From Eledone cirrhosa (lineage: Eukaryota), in NCBI GenBank assembly GCA_964016885.1, contig OZ024743.1, forward strand, positions 58,838,001 to 58,902,000: a DNA stretch of 64,000 bases, in the 5' to 3' direction. Numbering within the stretch: position 1 is the stretch's first letter; each line of letters begins with the position of its first letter. Positions 15,916 to 60,000 of the stretch are shown piece by piece. The position numbers and the translations under genes were made by a program. The notes beneath the pieces were generated by a model that worked only from the letters and a program-made list of their open reading frames with translations, searched no databases and was not told the DNA's origin.

Positions 15916-16042
15916 CACCACACTTGTACATAAGGTTAACAATTTTGAGATCGTAGAAACTGGGATTCGTCATTTTCCCAATTATATGCTGGAACGCCGG
16001 ATCTTTAGTTTCAACAACATTTTCACCATTACGTGAGAACAT
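15916..16042 (-). CDS. Astacin-like gene, end of catalytic domain (MFSRNGENVVETKDPAFQHIIGKMTNPSFYDLKIVNLMYKCG)
   Basis: FSRNG...IG....SFYD...N.MY.C is the astacin C-terminal pattern; ttttag acceptor and gtaagt donor; phase 0 to 1. Confidence 0.92.
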
Positions 16043-18443: not shown

Positions 18444-18647
18444 CGTGGATGAATAATGCATGATACTATAGTAGTCATACGGCGTATTGAATGTTTCTAC
18501 CTGACGATTCGTCAATTTATTGAAATCCGATATGAAGTTGGGAATGATATTGTCTATAATTACTCGTATATAATTATCCCTATCTGGACGTACATGCTGT
18601 TTCACTAACCCTATAACATGGCCAAGTTCGTGTAGTATTGAATTCAT
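18444..18647 (-). CDS. Astacin-like gene, zinc-binding and Met-turn exon (MNSILHELGHVIGLVKQHVRPDRDNYI...PYDYYSIMHYSST)
   Basis: HExxHxxG, RPDRD and YDY.SIMHY motifs; cag acceptor and gtaagt donor; 204 nt, phase 0 to 0. Confidence 0.95.
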
Positions 18648-22118: not shown

Positions 22119-22185
22119 CGAATGACAACAAGGTGCGATATTAAGAGATTGTGACCCTTTGCACATACCAATCCCTGCATGGGAC
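22119..22185 (-). CDS. Astacin-like gene, catalytic-domain exon (LSHAGIGMCKGSQSLNIAPCCHS)
   Basis: Aligns to the astacin xCxSxVG..GG.Q.L.L..GC segment; polypyrimidine tract plus cag acceptor, gtaaac donor; phase 2 to 0. Confidence 0.85.
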
Positions 22186-22989: not shown

Positions 22990-24103
22990 TTTTCATTTCT
23001 TTTGATTCGTCAAAGTGGTATTATTGAAAAAATTATAATAATGTATATAAAGTATATAGAATATTACTGCTTCGGTATATGAACGCGCTCGCTGGAGTAG
23101 TTTCCATTTGATCGTGAAAGGGGTGTAGTTCTTCTTGAGGTCCCAGATATAGGAGAAGGGTGTTGTCTGATTGGATTTGTCCGGTCTCCTGAACGAGTTG
23201 GTATGGGCATACCACCGAGTCTTAAAATTGTTGGAAGTCATTCCGATATATGTCTTTTTGTTGTCACCAATGCCAAAGACAACATCACATTTATACACCA
23301 TGTAGTTCTTCAGGCATTTGTTTTCAGGTGAACAAGCTTCCATAATTTGGCAGTTGCACAATGCTCCCGTCCAGGGATGGGTTTCGGAGGTAGTAGGCGT
23401 ATTTAATTAGCAGTGTTGAGATCGGCTATATTCCTAGATATGTTAGGTGTTGTGGAGTAGGGGAGTCTTATTTTATTCTTTTTACAGATAGTGTAGTACC
23501 TATGTTGTGTGGGGAAGTGATTGTTCACCAATTTGAAGAAAGTCCTAGATATTAGTGTAGAAACCTCTCGGTTTAAGGGGAGAGGGGTAGTACGAATTAA
23601 TCTGTCTATGCCTATTTCTCCTAGGTTGTCTTGTGTTGGCTTCTAGATTAGTAAACATGTTTTATAGCCACTGCGGGCAAGGACGTCGTTGTAGTAAAGT
23701 GCAGAGGATCTAAAGAAATCTTCATTGGCCGAGAGACCGGAAATTCTGAGTGAAACGCTTTAAACTAAATTATCTGCGATATAGTCGGGGTGGTTAGATC
23801 GAACATCTAGGTATCTAAGGGATTTGTTAGGTTTGTGGTACGAGTAATAGAAGGAAGTATCTAAATAAGTGACATCTAAAATATTGGCCCTAGTCATATT
23901 TGATTGTATAGTTATTCAAAATTCTAGATTACGGAAGAACGATCATATGGTTTTTCCGAAACCCATATGGGTTTTACAATATGCAAAAAAGGCCATCATC
24001 TTGGTATAATCCTCCAGTCAGGCTTGTGAAGAGTTGGTGATGTAAGGTGTACAGGTCCACCAGGTCGCTAACTTCGGCCGAGTCATTTGCTCTCATACTG
24101 ACG
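22990..24103 (-). mobile_element. Degenerate Penelope-like element (RT C-terminal part plus GIY-YIG)
   Basis: ANDSAEVSDLVDLY...GLYQDDGL (RT motifs) and CNCQ...C...MVYKC...TYIGMTSNNFKTRWYAHTNSFR; many stops; starts next to (TA)n. Confidence 0.85.
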
Positions 24104-25212: not shown

Positions 25213-25339
25213 AATTTTCCGGAATATGTAATATTAACGAAGTTCCTGTCATGTGAGTCTCTTGGACGAAACATTACACAGCTGTCTCTTTCCCATAAGC
25301 GCATGCCCTTTAACATGTCCTGCTTGAAGTTTTGTGGAA
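25213..25339 (-). CDS. Astacin-like gene, catalytic-domain exon (VPQNFKQDMLKGMRLWERDSCVMFRPRDSHDRNFVNITYSGK)
   Basis: Matches the astacin M..WE..xC..F.PR segment; ttttcag acceptor and gtaagc donor; phase 1 to 2. Confidence 0.9.
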
Positions 25340-29991: not shown

Positions 29992-30077
29992 CATTAGCAA
30001 TTTCATAAGGTATCACACCATCTGTCCAACGACATATTTCTGGTAGTATAGCAGCTCTTTTACGTCTACCTTCGGGT
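29992..30077 (-). CDS. Astacin-like gene, exon with furin site and mature N-terminus (PEGRRKR|AAILPEICRWTDGVIPYEIAN)
   Basis: RRKR-AA and W..GVIPY are typical of the astacin mature N-terminus; tag acceptor and gtaagt donor. Confidence 0.9.
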
Positions 30078-32888: not shown

Positions 32889-32934
32889 TGTTCCGTTTGA
32901 GGAATACCATTTCCAGTTACTTCTACGCTGGGAA
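32889..32934 (-). CDS. Astacin-like gene, 46-nt propeptide exon (VPSVEVTGNGIPQTEQ)
   Basis: ttttattcag acceptor and gtaagt donor; phase 1 to 2 fits both neighbours. Confidence 0.7.
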
Positions 32935-33447
32935 CTGAATAAAATAATAAGCATAGTCTATAATACATGAACTATCAAGAGTGGTAAAATATAATTTACT
33001 TGAACGGAATCAACGTTAAGATATTTCGGAGTCGTCCTTGTATGGTAAGTGACTGGATTCGAGACCGATATTTGAAAGTAAAATAATTGATCCGTGGAAG
33101 AGTGGTTTTAGCGAAAGATGGATATATTGTGGAAGAGACTTGATCTAGGACTATGTGTTGAAAGTAAAACAATTAAAGTGGGGAAATATTCATTTTAGCC
33201 CTTTAGAATACACACAAAACAGTTGGCATTGATTTCTTGTGAGTCGCATTATATTTTCGTCAAATTGTGTGGGCCGTTGTTACAGACAGTGCAACAAAAA
33301 TGTTGACACCAATAAAGACATGATAATTAAAGAATATAATTAACAGTATCTCTACTTTATAACGGGTTAAAGTGACTCTTCCTCCAGGTAAAAGTTAAGA
33401 TGCTGTAGTAAGAAGTCGTTAGTGTTCGGTAACTCTGATATACTCAC

Positions 33448-33481
33448 CTGTGTCAGTTACAACAACCGGTTCTTTAGTAAC
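33448..33481 (-). CDS. Astacin-like gene, 34-nt propeptide exon (VTKEPVVVTDT)
   Basis: tcttttcag acceptor and gtgagt donor; phase 0 to 1. Confidence 0.65.
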
Positions 33482-42210: not shown

Positions 42211-44929
42211 GTTTTCTCTTTCTCTTAATTTCGAGTATATTTTTTTGACCGGCCACCTTCCTGGTGGCAAAGTTGTAAAAGAAAAGAAATTGTCATCCCT
42301 TGAATCGCAAGAATGTTTTGCATATTTTGAAGGTGCCAGCTATCGCAGCCATTTGCAGACTATGAATTAGGGAGCTGCGCTTTTTGTCCGCAAATCCAAG
42401 TTCAGTCATACTTTGGTCCAAGCGGGTTGGTATATAACCCGTAGCACCAATAATGATGGGTATAAAGCTAAAGGTGTATCTTGGATACTGGATTTGTAAA
42501 CTCCTCATCAATGGTCCGTAGATGTCCTCCTTCTCCTGTATTTTTCTGACAACGTTTACATCAAGTGGGCAGCTGATCTCCACAACAGAACACGTTTTCA
42601 ATGTGTGGTCCCAAACTACAATATCAGGCCGGTTGTGCTTTAATTTGGTGGCAGTTTTTATTTTCAGGTTCCACCAGTATTCCTTAGTGCCATCTGTCTC
42701 AATATATTCTTCCTCGTTTGTTGTTAATTTTGTTTTCCGAAGTGCGTTCCAGATGGTTCTAGCTATCCCATCGTGTCTCATGGGGAGGTAGTAGCGAGAT
42801 GACATTCTTTCGCAGCTGGCAACAATGTGGCTTACATCCTCGATCTTTGTTTTACATAGCCTACATTTATTGTCAGCTGCTGGCCCTCCTCTTTTGTGCA
42901 GCAGATATTTGGTAGGGAGTTCTTGTTCCTGTATTGCATAGAGATATCCCTCAAGGTGTGATGTCATAAACTTGTCGGAACTCCATGCCAGGCTTTTTGA
43001 GTGGTTTATCCCCTCTATGGTCTGTGTTTTACGCCTCAAGTATCCATGCACAACTTTTTCTGTAAATTGGTCAATTTTCTTATCTTGTTTGAACATTGAA
43101 TAGGATCTTCCGATTTCTCTGGGTGAGAGATTTATATCAGGCTTTATTCCATATCTCTCCTCCAGATCAGTCGCTATTCTAATGATATTTCTTTTTTCAT
43201 GCTCATAAACCTGGGCAAGATGGTTGCCAACCTTTTTCCTCTGTTGAAGGTGTTGCTTCAGTGTTACTATCCGTGTCTCATATGTTGTTAATATTGATTT
43301 TAGACCCCGGCCACCTTCCTTGCGTGAGAAGTATAGCCTATCCACATCACCATTGATGTTAAAGTTGCCAGTAACACTGAGAAGATTTCGAGTTCTAACA
43401 TCCATCTCACTTAGTTCTTACAATGACCAGTTCAGTAGGCCAAATGTTGGCGTTAGAATTGGCACAGCATAAGTATTGTGAGCAATGTATTTGTTGTATG
43501 CTGACAGTTCTGATGACCATATTTTCTTTACTCTTCTGAGGTATTCAGTTCTGGTTCTCTCCTTATTTATGGGTCCATCATATCTGACATTCTCATCCTG
43601 TCCAAGATATCGGTAGTTGTCACCTGACTGCAGAGGTTGTATTGTCAGGCCGTTCATCTCTAGATTTCTAGAGGAGGGCACAGCTCTTCCACGTTTTACT
43701 GCCAAATATGCACACTTGGACTCACCAAATTTCATTTTGATGTCGGTTGAAAATTGTGTAATGAGGTCCAATTGTTTCTTGATGTCATTGATATTTGGCC
43801 CATACAACTTCAGGTCATCAACAAAGAAAAGATGGGAGATACTTCTGGGCCCACTTCTTTGTCCACCTTGTTTCCTGAGTAGGTAAGATAGTGGATTCAG
43901 TGAGAGAACGAAGAGTAGCACTGACAAGCTATCACCCTGAAAGATGCCCTTCTGGTAATGTATCTTATCAGTCTTAACCTGCTCCTTCTCACCTCTAAGG
44001 ATCAAATTGGTGTACCAGTTCTTGGTCAAGCGTTCAACAGCAGCTACCAATGGTTGTGGGACTTTAGCTAACTGTAAAGCTTTAACAATCCACCCATGAG
44101 GTACACTATCAAATGCTTTTTGATAGTCCAGCCACACGACAGTCATGTTTCTGCGATTCTTTGTTGTTTTTTCCTGAATCATTTTGTTAGTTAGTAGGTG
44201 ATCTATGCAACCCCACACCTCCCTCTTTCCACCAGCTTGCTCAGGTGTTATGATGTTGTTGGTAGCACAGTGATCCTGTAAGAACAGGTTAAGGCACCCA
44301 GTATATAATTTATACATGATGTTTTGGCAGGCAATTGGGCGGTAATTTTTAGCAAGGGCGGTTTGGCTATTTTGGGGAACGAGGAGAGTAGTGGCAGTTG
44401 ATAACCATCTGGGCAGTTCTTGTGTGCCCTCAATGGTTTCTGTAAACAGCCGTATGAGATCTTGCCGATAGAAAGTGAAATTCTTCAACCAGTATCCTGT
44501 AATGAGGTCTGGGCCTGGTGATTTCCTATTCGACATTTTCTGTAGAGCTGTTTCCAGTATTGACCCATCTATGTCATATTGTTTTGTCGGAACATGTTGG
44601 TAGTAGTCCTGTTCCAGTTCTTTTAGCCAATTAGCTTGTCTGTTGAATCCGTCATCCGTTTCCCATACATATCTCCAGTAGCTCTCAACCTGTTCTTTTG
44701 AAGGGGTGTCGTTTACATGGATTGAGCTTTTGCCACCGAACCTGTGATAAACTGATTTAGGATCTCTGGCAAACAATCTATTTAGCACTTGTCGTTTATG
44801 TGCTGTTGACTTATATTTTAGTCTTTCTGATGTAGCTGTGAGTTGTTTCAACTGGTGTAATTTGGAGTTCAAAGTTTTAAATTTTGTATCTCCAAATCGT
44901 CTCTCTAACTTTTTCTTTAGGTCTTCCTA
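42211..44929 (-). mobile_element. 5'-truncated Dong/R4-clade non-LTR retrotransposon (RT, CCHC, restriction-like endonuclease) with one in-frame stop
   Basis: KSPGPD, NYRPI, WLDYQKAFDSVPH, GIFQGDSLS, FFVDDLK, CRLC...H...C, RHD, RPDIV...E. ORFs 43418-44872 and 42293-43405 are in the same frame, split by TAA. (TATG)n on both flanks. Confidence 0.92.
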
Positions 44930-46101: not shown

Positions 46102-46452
46102 CATGTTTGTATGTATGTATGTGTACGTGAAATGACTCAACGAATAATTAAAAACAAAACACACCTAGATTGTGAGGGTAGAAAAAAAATCAAATTTTGT
46201 GTGCTAAATTATGTTTTACAAATTACATGGAAGTTGGTGAAGATAAATGAAAGGTAGAACTTACATCAGATGAAGACGTAGGAATTTGGTAGGCGAACAA
46301 TATTAGCAGAGCTGCGAGATTCATTCCGGTTGTCACTTGCCACTTCATGGTTGTAGCGATAATGGTGTGGTTTTCAGTAACATTTGCTACTTATATAGAT
46401 AGCGGGACAAAGATAGACCAGTATATCGTCATGCCATTGGCTCCCATAGATA

Positions 46453-46738: not shown

Positions 46739-47073
46739 CGGAAATAATTCATGAACTTTCATTGACCCTTGACTGATCCTCTTTCTAAACATTGACCCTA
46801 AGGCTTCCTCGGATATCTAGTGCTAAAATGATTTGTATTCGATCAGATTTCGCAGGGCTCAATCAACGTTGACTTTATAATCTGAGTCAAAAGAAAATAC
46901 CGTTTACTTGTTTTATAATCGAATTAAAGAAACCCTTGAGGAATTAATGTTGGATTTAGCAGTTAACTACTTTGAAAACATTTCATTTAATAACAATTCA
47001 TAAAATTGATGACTACTGAAATATTTCCGTCACTACCTTAATCTTGTTTATAAGTTCTTCACAATTCAAGGTG

Positions 47074-48144
<1,071 letters not shown>

Positions 48145-49262
48145 CCGAGAGGGTCGTTCTGGAAGATTCCTCAAACACTTTCTTCCAGGAGTACTGTCAG
48201 AAGCAACCGTCTCCAATTGATCCGACTTGAACCCCCAAATGCGACAAGCCAAGCTCGTCGATGTTAACCAACCATCTTGCTTGGGGTCTAAACCTGGGTG
48301 TCCTCCATTTTGATTTTGCTCAATAATTCTACTTCAATTTGTTGCTGGTATATGTTTTCCTGATATGTTTTACTGGAGTCGCATGGCATCTCTGTTAGAG
48401 TGCTAGGCTTATAATCCGAATGTTAAAATTTGATTTTCCGGATCGAGTGTCAGATTGGGACCTTGTTTACAACACTTTATTTCCCGTTGCTGCAGTTTAC
48501 TCAAGCAGAGAATATGATTTGCAACGATCTTCGTTCCGTCTTTCCATTGTTCAACATCGGCGACGTGAAAATGTGAGACGGGCTGCCTGTATGAGTATTT
48601 GTCTTCTCAAAACACTCAGCCTAATCTCATGCATCGCAGGGGCAAATCCATAGAGAGGAAATCCTGCTGTGTATAATACATGGCAAATAGTGACAGATGG
48701 GGGTTCTTCTCTTCCCCTCATGTAGCTTTTCTTTTTACTTTGCTGAACTTGTTTTTCTTAATCATTTAATTTGTAAAACTGCAGTGAGGAAAGCTCTATA
48801 GTGCTCCGGAGTACAAAATGATTTGTATTATGACTTTTACTATTTAATCTTTGGAGGAAGTGATTAGACTGTAGAATCCTTGTAGAGACATTCATGTTCG
48901 TTAGTGCAAATGGATAACTATTCCTATGGGTGTATACACGAGCCAAATATCCACAATGTAGCAGAATACGCTAAACGTTCTCAAAGACCTGAGTAAATTG
49001 GTGTTGAGCGACGGATTAAATCCCTCCAACAAGGGCAGAACCTGTCATCGCGACGGGCTTCAAAATCACGAAGACACTAAAAATTTAGGTCTAGTGCGAA
49101 TTTGTGTGATTATGTATATGTTCGATCGAGGCAGACGTTAGACTAGGTAACAGCAGCAATAACAACGTTAAAAAAGGAATTGATGTTTCTTTATATTCAT
49201 TGTATCGTATGTTTTATCTTTTCTATATGATATTTGTTACTATATTACAAAGATCTTCTGAA

Positions 49263-57011: not shown

Positions 57012-60000
57012 TTACAGACACATACTCAGAGAAGGCCCATTCATTCGGGCCATACTTGCTTCTCTCACCCATCTTTCAACAAAATGCTGGGAAGAGAGCA
57101 CTTCCCTCTCTACCCTGATTTTCCTTTTCAAATGAAATTTGAAAAAGTTAATCAGGGCATCACCGAAGAGGTAAGTGCTCGTCTTCAGCCCTTTCAAACG
57201 TGTCCACCATACTATCTCTTTCGCCATGGCCACCAGACAGATAAAAACTGCCTGCCCTTCCCGGCTAAAGGAAGGGGGCGGGGCAATCCTCACGATGGAC
57301 TCAGCTAATAGCCGGATCCGTCCTACACGTGACAGCAGGTGTTCGACATAAACCCACAAGTCAGCAATGCTCGGACACTGGACGAGTGAGTGCAGGACGG
57401 TTTAGTCGCCCTGCGCGCATCTCGGACATGCCCGGCTGACGGCAGCTCCATGCCTGTAGAGTTTATCCCGAAGTGGCAAAGCTCCTCGGTAGCACTGCCA
57501 GGCCAGGGATTTCTGGAAGTTGTCCATAGGCCCCGGCCCGAAAGTCCTTCCGAAGAGATTGGCTAGTTGATTTTCGTCGACGCCTAGAGTTTCTCCAAGT
57601 ACGTCGTCGCTCTTCCGCTCCACTAATCCCCTATAGAACGCCAAGGTGGAGTTTCCACCGACCACATTGCCCGATTCGTTGAGGGCTGTGAGCGCCTGAA
57701 GACGTTCCAGTCTCCAAGCGCTCCCTCTCGGTCTTCGCTTGACCCAGGACTGCAGCTCCGTCAAGGAGACGAGCTGGGGAAAAACGTGTCTAGCAAACGG
57801 CGACCACACCTGATCACCGTCGAGGAAGAGGTGGAGATGTCGTAGCCTGAGCGCGTGTCTGCGCATCATCAGCCACGGCTGGCCCAGCCCTCCACGTAGC
57901 GGGTGTTGACAGCAGATGGACCGCCTGACCATCGGAGCGCGCCCCTTCCACAATAAGCGAAAGAGCAAACGCTCCAGCGCAGTCAGGCGGGGCTTAGGAC
58001 AAGGTACGACGGTCAGGCGGTAGTAGATGACGGATGCGATGTACGCATTCGCGACCTCCGCTCGACCTTTCAGGGATAGCTTCCTCTCGGCCCATTTCTG
58101 GGTGAGGGAAGCCACCCTGCTCGTCACCTCGTCCCAGTTTTTGTCCGTCTGGAGGTCTGGACCGAACCAGACCCCTAGCAATTTAACCGGTCCGTCCGTC
58201 CAGCGGCCGACGACGCTGTTGGACGGCATGGACCTGCCTCTCCAGGTGCTGAGCTGCAGGCCCACTGACTTTTCCTGGTTGATCATTGCTCCTGTCACCG
58301 CTTCGTATTCTCTTAGTGTAGTGCCGATCGCCTCGATGTGTTTGGCGTTCGACACCACTACGGTGACATCGTCGGCATATGCTGACACGGATCTTCCGCA
58401 TCCTAGTTCGCGCGGGACCCCCCTCAACGTCTCCAGTTTGTGCAGTAATGGCTCGAGAGTCAATACGTACAATAGGGACGAGAGGGGACATCCTTGGCGG
58501 ACCGAGCGCATGATGTTGAACGGTTCCGAAAGGTGACCGTTCACTCTCACTACAGAGCAGATGTCGCTGTGCATGGCAGTGATCCAGCCTCTGAAGACGG
58601 GCCCAAAGCCAGCCGCCCTCAGGACTGCCGCTAGGTAACGATGGTCGACCCTATCGAAAGCTTTCGACTGATCTAAATTGATCAAAGACCCACCCGTGCC
58701 AGGTTCCCTAGCTACCCTCTCTACGATGTATCGCATGAGGTGGAGGTTGTCGTGGATGGATCTGTCGGGAATGGCGTATGTCTGTGCCTCTCCCACCAGA
58801 CGACCAACGACAAGCGCCAACCTCTTTGCTAGCACCTTGGCCAAAATTTTGAACTCTGTGTTTAGCAGAGTTATGGGCCTAAAATTATCTATGTTATCCC
58901 TCTTGTTCGGATCCTTTCTCAGAAGCGCCACCGCTCCTCGGCTCACAGAGCTGGGAATTCTCCCGTTCTGTTGCCAGTTGCAGTAGACGTCCGCCAAGAG
59001 GCCTCCGAACAAGTTTGGCATTTGTACGTAAAGTTCATAGAGCAGACCATCCAAACCAGGCGATTTACCCCTTGTGCAACTAGTCATTGCATCCCGTACT
59101 TCAGCGGTTGTTATCGGCTTTTCGCAACACTCCGCCTCAGTGGCCGAAAGCCGCGGCAGTCCGTCGAGGTAGACACTAAAGTCCATCCCTCGATCCGGCC
59201 CGCCACTGCCCCCGAACAGTTGAGCGAAGTGTCGCTGAAAAGCTTCACACATTTGCCCGGGATCGAGTAGCATGCGCCCGTCGTGGTCCACCAAAGACCG
59301 GATCGTAGCTTTGTTGCCACGACGCGCCTCCGCCACTCGGGCCCATTGAACGGCTTTCGTCCCCTCGTGTCAGAGAGCACGCACCCTAGCTCTGACAACG
59401 CAGCCTTCGTGCTTTGCATTGAAGAATTGGTAAAGGGCCAATTTCGCCGCAAGTACGTCGGTCGCGATGCCTTTGCTAAGCGCCTCATCTAATTTTCTAA
59501 CTAATTCTCCCTCTGCTCTATTTTTCTCTATTGCTAAACTCTTACTAAGCCTATGCTAGACCTATCTATTTCCCTACAAAATACTCTATCTAGATATGAT
59601 CTGGATGACCCTATGCGATTTGTCCAAGTCCACATTGGTACATTCGGGAAATCCATTCGGTACCTGTCAGACAGTTCAAAACGTCTGAGCAAGTTGGTGA
59701 GACTCTTGCACCCTCCTTCCCTATCCACTAATCCCACACAATCCCAGCGTGCATCTAAGATCCCGTTCCAGTCGCCCACTAACACTAAAGAGCGGGACAT
59801 TCCAAGAAAGGTCTCCAGACGCCGGAAGAAATCAGGCCGCCCTGCTCCTGTCGGGGCATAGACGGCCACTAACCTGAAAGCTTGCCCGTCTCCGCTGGTC
59901 ACGTCCAGCACCACCAACTTACCTTCTGGGTCCAGGAAGATGGCCCGTATGGCAAGATCCAAACCTCTCCGAAAAAGCACATCAACTCCTCCCCCCGATC

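Follow-up and report, generated by a model that had tools for sequence, protein, structure and literature searches.

A tandem-duplicated astacin gene without the third zinc histidine in Eledone cirrhosa

Gene structure and the altered zinc site

The window analysed here is a stretch of 64,000 nucleotides of the Eledone cirrhosa genome, and it carries on its minus strand an astacin-like gene. The gene is one of three in tandem (A, B and C) and is referred to below as copy B. Copy B has 12 coding exons, 11 of which lie inside the window, in frame and with intact splice ends. A signal exon opens the chain; two exons then encode the propeptide and five the catalytic domain, followed by a linker with six cysteines, a pair of ShK-like modules with five cysteines each, and exon 12. 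Its features, together with the location of copy A, are as follows (positions are those of the window unless a contig is given):

46265..46348, minus strand: coding part of exon 1 (28 residues), with the start codon and a predicted signal peptide; GT donor
33448..33481, minus strand: exon 2, propeptide; bounded by AG and GT, phase 0-1; found in all three copies
32889..32934, minus strand: exon 3, propeptide; in the exon chains of A, B and C
29992..30077, minus strand: exon 4, with the basic maturation site RRKR and the start of the mature protein; Cys8 is new in B and C
25213..25339, minus strand: exon 5, region of the backing helix, with Cys42; matches positions 17-52 of Pfam Astacin (E 0.002)
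22119..22185, minus strand: exon 6, strands of the cleft rim (residues ~64-86); changed more than any other exon
18444..18647, minus strand: exon 7, with the active-site helix, the altered zinc motif, RPDRD and the Met-turn; Pfam Astacin E 2e-21
18597..18602, minus strand: AAA CAG, encoding Lys102 and Gln103 in place of the third zinc His and the family Glu
15916..16042, minus strand: exon 8, C-terminal helix, Cys195; Pfam Astacin E 2e-6
8497..8601, minus strand: exon 9, six-cysteine linker; 50% identity to the linker of the orthologue; missing from copy A
5470..5574, minus strand: exon 10, five-cysteine ShK-like module 1; without Pfam match; atlas lead to ShK at 0.88
3189..3281, minus strand: dead remnant of a four-cysteine exon, whose counterpart is open in copy A
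1867..1971, minus strand: exon 11, five-cysteine ShK-like module 2, part of the exon chain of B
G000:C4:58837121 downward, ~880 bases before the window start, minus strand: exon 12, encoding the terminal ShK; carries a frameshift in B and C
G000:C4:58678700-58742008 (L007, L028-L035): copy A; three His and four Cys kept, Gln103, fast-evolving

Exon 1 is hydrophobic, matches the N-terminal end of the orthologue in O. bimaculoides at 38% and is 99-100% alike across the three copies. No FXGDI latency motif was found anywhere in the propeptide of A, B or C; the motif is already missing in the orthologues of O. bimaculoides and O. vulgaris (P0253, P0275), and its loss is therefore older than the copies. 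The linker encoded by exon 9, which we take to be EGF-like, gave no match in a Pfam scan. The ShK-like modules in the window have five cysteines, do not follow the six-cysteine ShKT (PF01549) spacing and have no Pfam match; in both (1867-1971 and 5470-5574) the first and last ShK cysteines are missing and one extra cysteine is present. The cysteine count of the ShK-like tail of B is odd (11), which possibly leaves a free thiol. Exon 12 encodes in copy A a full six-cysteine ShK domain with ShKT spacing, whereas in B and C a frameshift near its start removes this terminal domain, so that B ends at 371 residues. The C form of the frameshifted exon was also seen in short-read contigs of runs X2 and X3. 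A first-pass annotation of this DNA had described the gene as devoid of stops and frameshifts, and this holds for the 11 coding exons in the window but not for exon 12.

Among other features, two LINE-type reverse-transcriptase open reading frames (Pfam RVT_1) lie on the minus strand at 42293-44926 and 57402-59369, one in intron 1 and the other upstream of the gene. Two intronic open reading frames, also on the minus strand (6884-7588, without Pfam match, and 22993-23406), resemble what we take to be Penelope-type endonuclease remnants. Just upstream of exon 1, all six frames are open in 47013-48333, which is probably a simple tandem repeat.

The minus-strand exon 18647-18444 (204 bases, AG/GT ends) encodes HELGHVIGLVKQHVRPDRD, which ends in SIMHY, and could be aligned without gaps to BMP1 in the PDB and to Pfam Astacin. 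We numbered residues from the mature start after RRKR, so that the first His carries the number 92 that it has in crayfish astacin. On the minus strand, the His92 codon occupies 18632-18630, RPDRD is in register and SIMHY spans 18467-18453. Our analysis confirmed that the catalytic Glu, the first two His, the RxDRD spacing and SIMHY are intact, and that AAA CAG (18602-18597) stands at motif positions 11-12: the third zinc-His position, 102, is Lys (AAA, 18602-18600) and position 103 is Gln (CAG, 18599-18597). His92, the catalytic Glu93, His96, Met149 and Tyr151 are intact in both B and C, despite 42 changed residues. In astacins the zinc ligands include the third His, Glu103 contacts the mature N-terminus, and the SIMHY Tyr is a further, mobile zinc ligand (PMC9848320).

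A single sequencing error had already been judged unlikely in the first-pass annotation, and an error of sequencing or assembly at this site is excluded by two observations: the AAA CAG codons recur in a second copy 158 kb away (L011), and short-read contigs from runs X1, X2 and X3, which represent one sample and possibly the source of the assembly, show 0 differences from the window across the zinc site. The RAD-seq runs X4 and X5 covered the exons with too few reads to contribute.

When compared with active astacin peptidases, B and C lack the third His, the family Glu103, the C64-C84 disulfide and FXGDI, and keep the catalytic Glu93 and the cysteines of the C42-C198 disulfide. They also keep features that mark an astacin by descent, namely a ~200-residue domain matching PF01400 (196 residues in the mature form), a signal-like exon 1, RRKR, RxDRD, and SIMHY with its Tyr. 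Metzincin activity is generally abolished when the third His is lost. In a search of the open-access literature we found no paper demonstrating this effect on catalysis, and in titles and abstract starts nothing on this gene or on an astacin without the third His alone.

Tandem copies and the ancestral zinc site

A search of the genome returned at least 15 zinc-motif loci, of which 12 read HE, one HQ and two KQ. The HQ locus and the two KQ loci are tandem copies on contig C4, with a unit of ~150 kb: A (HQ), B (KQ, in the window) and C (KQ). In copy A, Ser70 replaces a conserved Gly, the linker exon is missing, and the tail has five ShK-type exons with 5, 6, 4, 5 and 6 cysteines. B has two ShK-like modules and C has four, and the canonical ShK exons of A are missing from both. 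These ShK-like exons of B and C are carried in a tandem unit of ~3.6-3.9 kb (window 621-5726; G000:C4:58987700-59003200), in which C2 equals C3 exactly, including 480 intron bases, and the two resemble a mosaic of C1 and C4. Beside exons 2-3 (flanks of window 32889-33481), B and A are more alike than B and C, the opposite of the remaining gene; judging from this pattern, the A-like flanks in B are likely to stem from gene conversion or recombination.

We then looked at the state of the site in relatives. With the 67-residue exon as query, no cephalopod orthologue appeared among the best 120 of 317 matches. A full HMMER scan identified the O. bimaculoides protein XP_014780012.1 (P0253), with a like architecture and an intact zinc site, and a search with this protein retrieved counterparts in O. 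sinensis and O. vulgaris (P0274, P0275), whose zinc site is also intact. One cluster of this astacin/EGF-like/ShK gene was found per Octopus species. Since all three orthologues read HE, the intact state is ancestral, and the idea that KQ might be conserved in orthologues does not stand.

The wider alignment comprised 339 domains from 276 proteins, with four isoform duplicates dropped and a set skewed to top matches. Column 102 is His in 321 of the 327 related domains that cover it and Lys in 0/327. Loss of His102 with HExxH intact was seen in 2/325 relatives, both of them domains of one Necator protein, while Glu103 is replaced in an otherwise intact site in 16/325. On these frequencies, Gln103 is the older, tolerated change and Lys102 the rare event. 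The three base changes counted in the first-pass annotation are present, but Gln103 is common to A, B and C, including the His-retaining A, and Lys102 to B and C only, so that KQ arose in two separate events. That annotation had also pointed to His13 of the motif (His104) as a compensating metal ligand. This residue is the commonest at its position (227/327 relatives) and is present in A and in the orthologues; being ancestral and common, it is not compensatory, and we rejected it as a new ligand. Other predicted astacins with degenerate zinc sites were also noted among the matches (P0150, P0176, P0167 and P0131).

Divergence between the copies

Between A and B, the mature domain shows 57 nonsynonymous differences in 460 sites and 5 synonymous differences in 128 sites (Fisher p=0.0025), corresponding to dN 0.136 and dS 0.040. 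A pairwise codon model gave a maximum-likelihood omega of 4.3 (p=0.004 against 1). The introns flanking the mature exons differ at 109 of 2875 bases (0.039), and the enzyme part has changed at ~3 times the neutral DNA rate. With dN/dS of ~3-4 between copies, the value below 1 previously envisaged for the domain was not observed; as read from these substitution counts, the excess of amino-acid change points to positive and not purifying selection. Two or more base differences affect 15 of 196 codons, compared with 0.8 expected, and these include His102 to Lys, which falls on the B/C line alone. The pre-pro region (dN 0.007) did not serve as a control, since A and B seem to have been homogenised in the 5' part: its A-B introns differ by 1.6-3.8%, compared with 3.7-5.5% between B and C beside exons 2-3.

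The changes are not spread evenly. Conserved columns were spared (5/47 changed, compared with 35/144 of the others, p=0.03), and changes are concentrated at residues 63-85 (12/23 compared with 30/173, p=0.0005), a segment that was picked after seeing the list of changes. This stretch includes strand beta-4, which forms the upper cleft rim, and the C64-C84 disulfide (PMC9848320, section 2.1). Exon 6 alone differs between B and A by 15.5 nonsynonymous and 2.5 synonymous changes; in B and C it has Cys65 replaced by Ser, a residue that is kept as Cys in 223/255 relatives, Gly66 replaced by His, and new cysteines at 72 and 83. With Cys65 lost and Cys8, Cys72 and Cys83 gained, B and C have an even total of six cysteines. 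Import of a diverged tract into exon 6 by gene conversion is disfavoured by the few synonymous changes and by the 5% divergence of the downstream intron. When changes were polarised with the Octopus outgroups, 11 fell on B/C, 11 on A and 20 on no assignable branch. The equal numbers suggest that both daughters were driven and, as the His-retaining A is included, that selection may predate the loss of His102.

Since KQ is common to B and C, divergence between these two reports on the time after His loss. Over all common exons, B and C differ by 21 nonsynonymous changes in 843 sites and 4 synonymous changes in 237 sites (p=0.63), with no signal of purifying selection. The start codon, the splice sites and the 11 common exons have stayed unbroken in both copies since the split, when ~4.3 breaks would be expected at 2.8% divergence (P=0.013); hand-scaled to the 1.6% divergence beside the mature exons, P is ~0.09. 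In addition, the tail exon pair B2-C4 shows 6 amino-acid changes and 0 silent ones, above its intron (p=0.02), although it is one of several pairs tested and B1-C1 shows no excess (2 and 2). The B2-C4 changes postdate the split and thus arose when His was already gone.

All B-C tests presuppose that C is a true locus. It is quite unlikely, in our view, that the assembler created C by placing a haplotype of B a second time, which would leave a single KQ gene; the B-C tests would then be void and the KQ substitution itself would stay. This question is separate from the functional readings discussed below. The spacer before C does repeat the spacer before B at 96-98%, as expected of a false tandem, but B and C differ by 1.6-2.8% and in their number of ShK exons. 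In short-read contigs, the KQ form has ~2x the depth of the HQ form (11 compared with 5.3 in X2, and 15.5 compared with 7 in X3), which supports C only loosely, as this depth is not a copy number.

Possible functions and related systems

The reading we prefer, with about even confidence, is that B and C are recently duplicated His-less astacins with a remodelled cleft, which may be secreted and, shaped by selection, bind a target protein but not cleave it (a pseudo-astacin). A maintained pseudo-protease was also the proposal of the first-pass annotation, on grounds other than ours; its idea of a passive carrier for the C-terminal module fits poorly, since the catalytic domain is itself being remodelled. 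Under this scenario, a single intact gene would have lost Glu103 and then duplicated, and both daughters would have diverged under positive selection. In the B/C line, loss of His102, new disulfide connections and an exchange of ShK modules would have followed, and then a further duplication. Cleavage at RRKR would leave the fold intact, two His and a Tyr would fail to hold the catalytic zinc, and the amine of Lys102 could occupy the emptied metal site beside Glu93. The altered cleft and the ShK-like tail would bind a partner that itself changes fast, either trapping a substrate or acting as a protease-inhibitor decoy, while copy A would stay the cutter. A more specific version, that one daughter was selected to swap the third ligand for a Lys filling the metal site and so became a trap or decoy beside an active sister, is possible but on balance doubtful. 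Several observations count against a binder. Glu93, His92, His96, Met149 and Tyr151 are intact, unlike in the listed ADAM pseudopeptidases, which lose the general base. The frameshift in exon 12, the dead exon remnant, the apparently neutral divergence between B and C and the equal selection on A also speak against it, as far as sequence comparison can tell.

These last points lead to the somewhat unlikely alternative that the B/C ancestor was a fast-evolving active protease that later lost His102 and its last domain, B and C being now drifting young pseudogenes. The frameshift is common to both copies and hit an exon that had diverged from A with its cysteines kept, and neutral-looking divergence after the split and equal selection on A would be expected from such a history. 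On the other hand, the His102 codon was struck twice on one line, 11 exons have remained unbroken in either copy (P about 0.01-0.09), and the cysteine gains offset the loss of Cys65. The five intact residues could instead indicate that B and C are still enzymes, in which zinc or another metal is held by two His and Tyr151 together with water or a newly gained ligand (His66 or one of the rim cysteines), with altered rate or specificity. B and C have indeed gained His66, Cys72 and Cys83 near the cleft. However, Lys is seen in none of the 327 relatives at column 102, His104 is ancestral, and residue 66 presumably points away from the catalytic zinc, so that we regard a retained enzyme as unlikely. 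Finally, A-to-I editing at the first base of AAA would give GAA, a Glu codon, and could supply a carboxylate as third ligand in some tissues. RNA recoding is widespread in cephalopods, and in some metzincins the third ligand is acidic. Yet the predicted folding of the exon with its upstream intron was not better than that of shuffled sequences (z 0.29), no complementary stretch of more than 10 bases occurs within the gene, and the first A of AAA follows a G, a disfavoured editing neighbour; we therefore consider an editing-gated enzyme very improbable.

The closest known systems are the Octopus nas-8-like astacin-ShKT proteins (XP_014780012.1 and counterparts), which have in common with the Eledone copies a signal peptide, a short propeptide without FXGDI, an astacin domain, a six-cysteine linker and a ShK tail. 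The O. bimaculoides protein has 58% identity over the catalytic exon, and its best matches in the Eledone cirrhosa genome are A, B and C. In contrast, the Octopus proteins have an intact HExxHxxGxxHE, Cys65, four canonical ShK domains and one cluster per species, whereas Eledone has three copies with HQ or KQ and five-cysteine ShK-like modules. With the astacin family M12A (crayfish astacin, BMP1, meprins) the gene shares PF01400 on three exons, HExxHxxG, RxDRD, SIMHY and Cys42-Cys195; the third His, the family Glu, the Cys64 equivalent and the aspartate-switch motif are missing here. The salivary M12-ShK proteins of the vampire snail Cumia reticulata are likewise molluscan astacins with a variable number of ShK domains and frequent gene and domain duplication, but their zinc site is conserved (HEXGHXXGLXHEH; PMC6409789). 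By descent, B and C are astacins of the molluscan M12-ShK type which, from their residues, would not be classed as active members.

Pseudo-metallopeptidases are already known. The ADAM pseudopeptidases (ADAM2, 7, 11, 22, 23 and unc-71) have a metzincin fold in which the Met-turn is kept and zinc ligands are lost, and they act as binders (PMC11266112); B and C would work in a similar way. The ADAM pseudopeptidases, however, form an old and conserved group in another branch of M12, and each of the nine listed has lost the catalytic Glu (PMC11266112, Table 2); in B and C the third ligand alone was lost, in a recent event and in a domain under positive selection. In the parts of that review covered here, no astacin pseudopeptidase is named and astacin is mentioned once (PMC11266112). 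Loss of the third His alone is rare (2/325 relatives): in Necator americanus ETN68291.1 (P0150), HExxH is intact and positions 11-12 are changed to QQ in both domains, but this is a predicted protein of an unrelated lineage, with Gln and not Lys.

Known pseudo-metallopeptidases are mostly old and conserved, so that their origin cannot be read from sequence. Here, a three-His copy and two-His copies adjoin at ~4% neutral divergence, with intact orthologues as outgroup, which allows a direct test of whether selection drove the loss of catalysis. If one daughter was indeed selected to give up its third ligand, the copies would form a natural and nearly matched pair, with 42 shared differences in 196 residues, for weighing selection against drift in the origin of pseudoenzymes. 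Whichever reading holds, the locus is, from its rate of change, likely an arms-race gene of an octopod, engaged in interactions with prey, microbes or mates.
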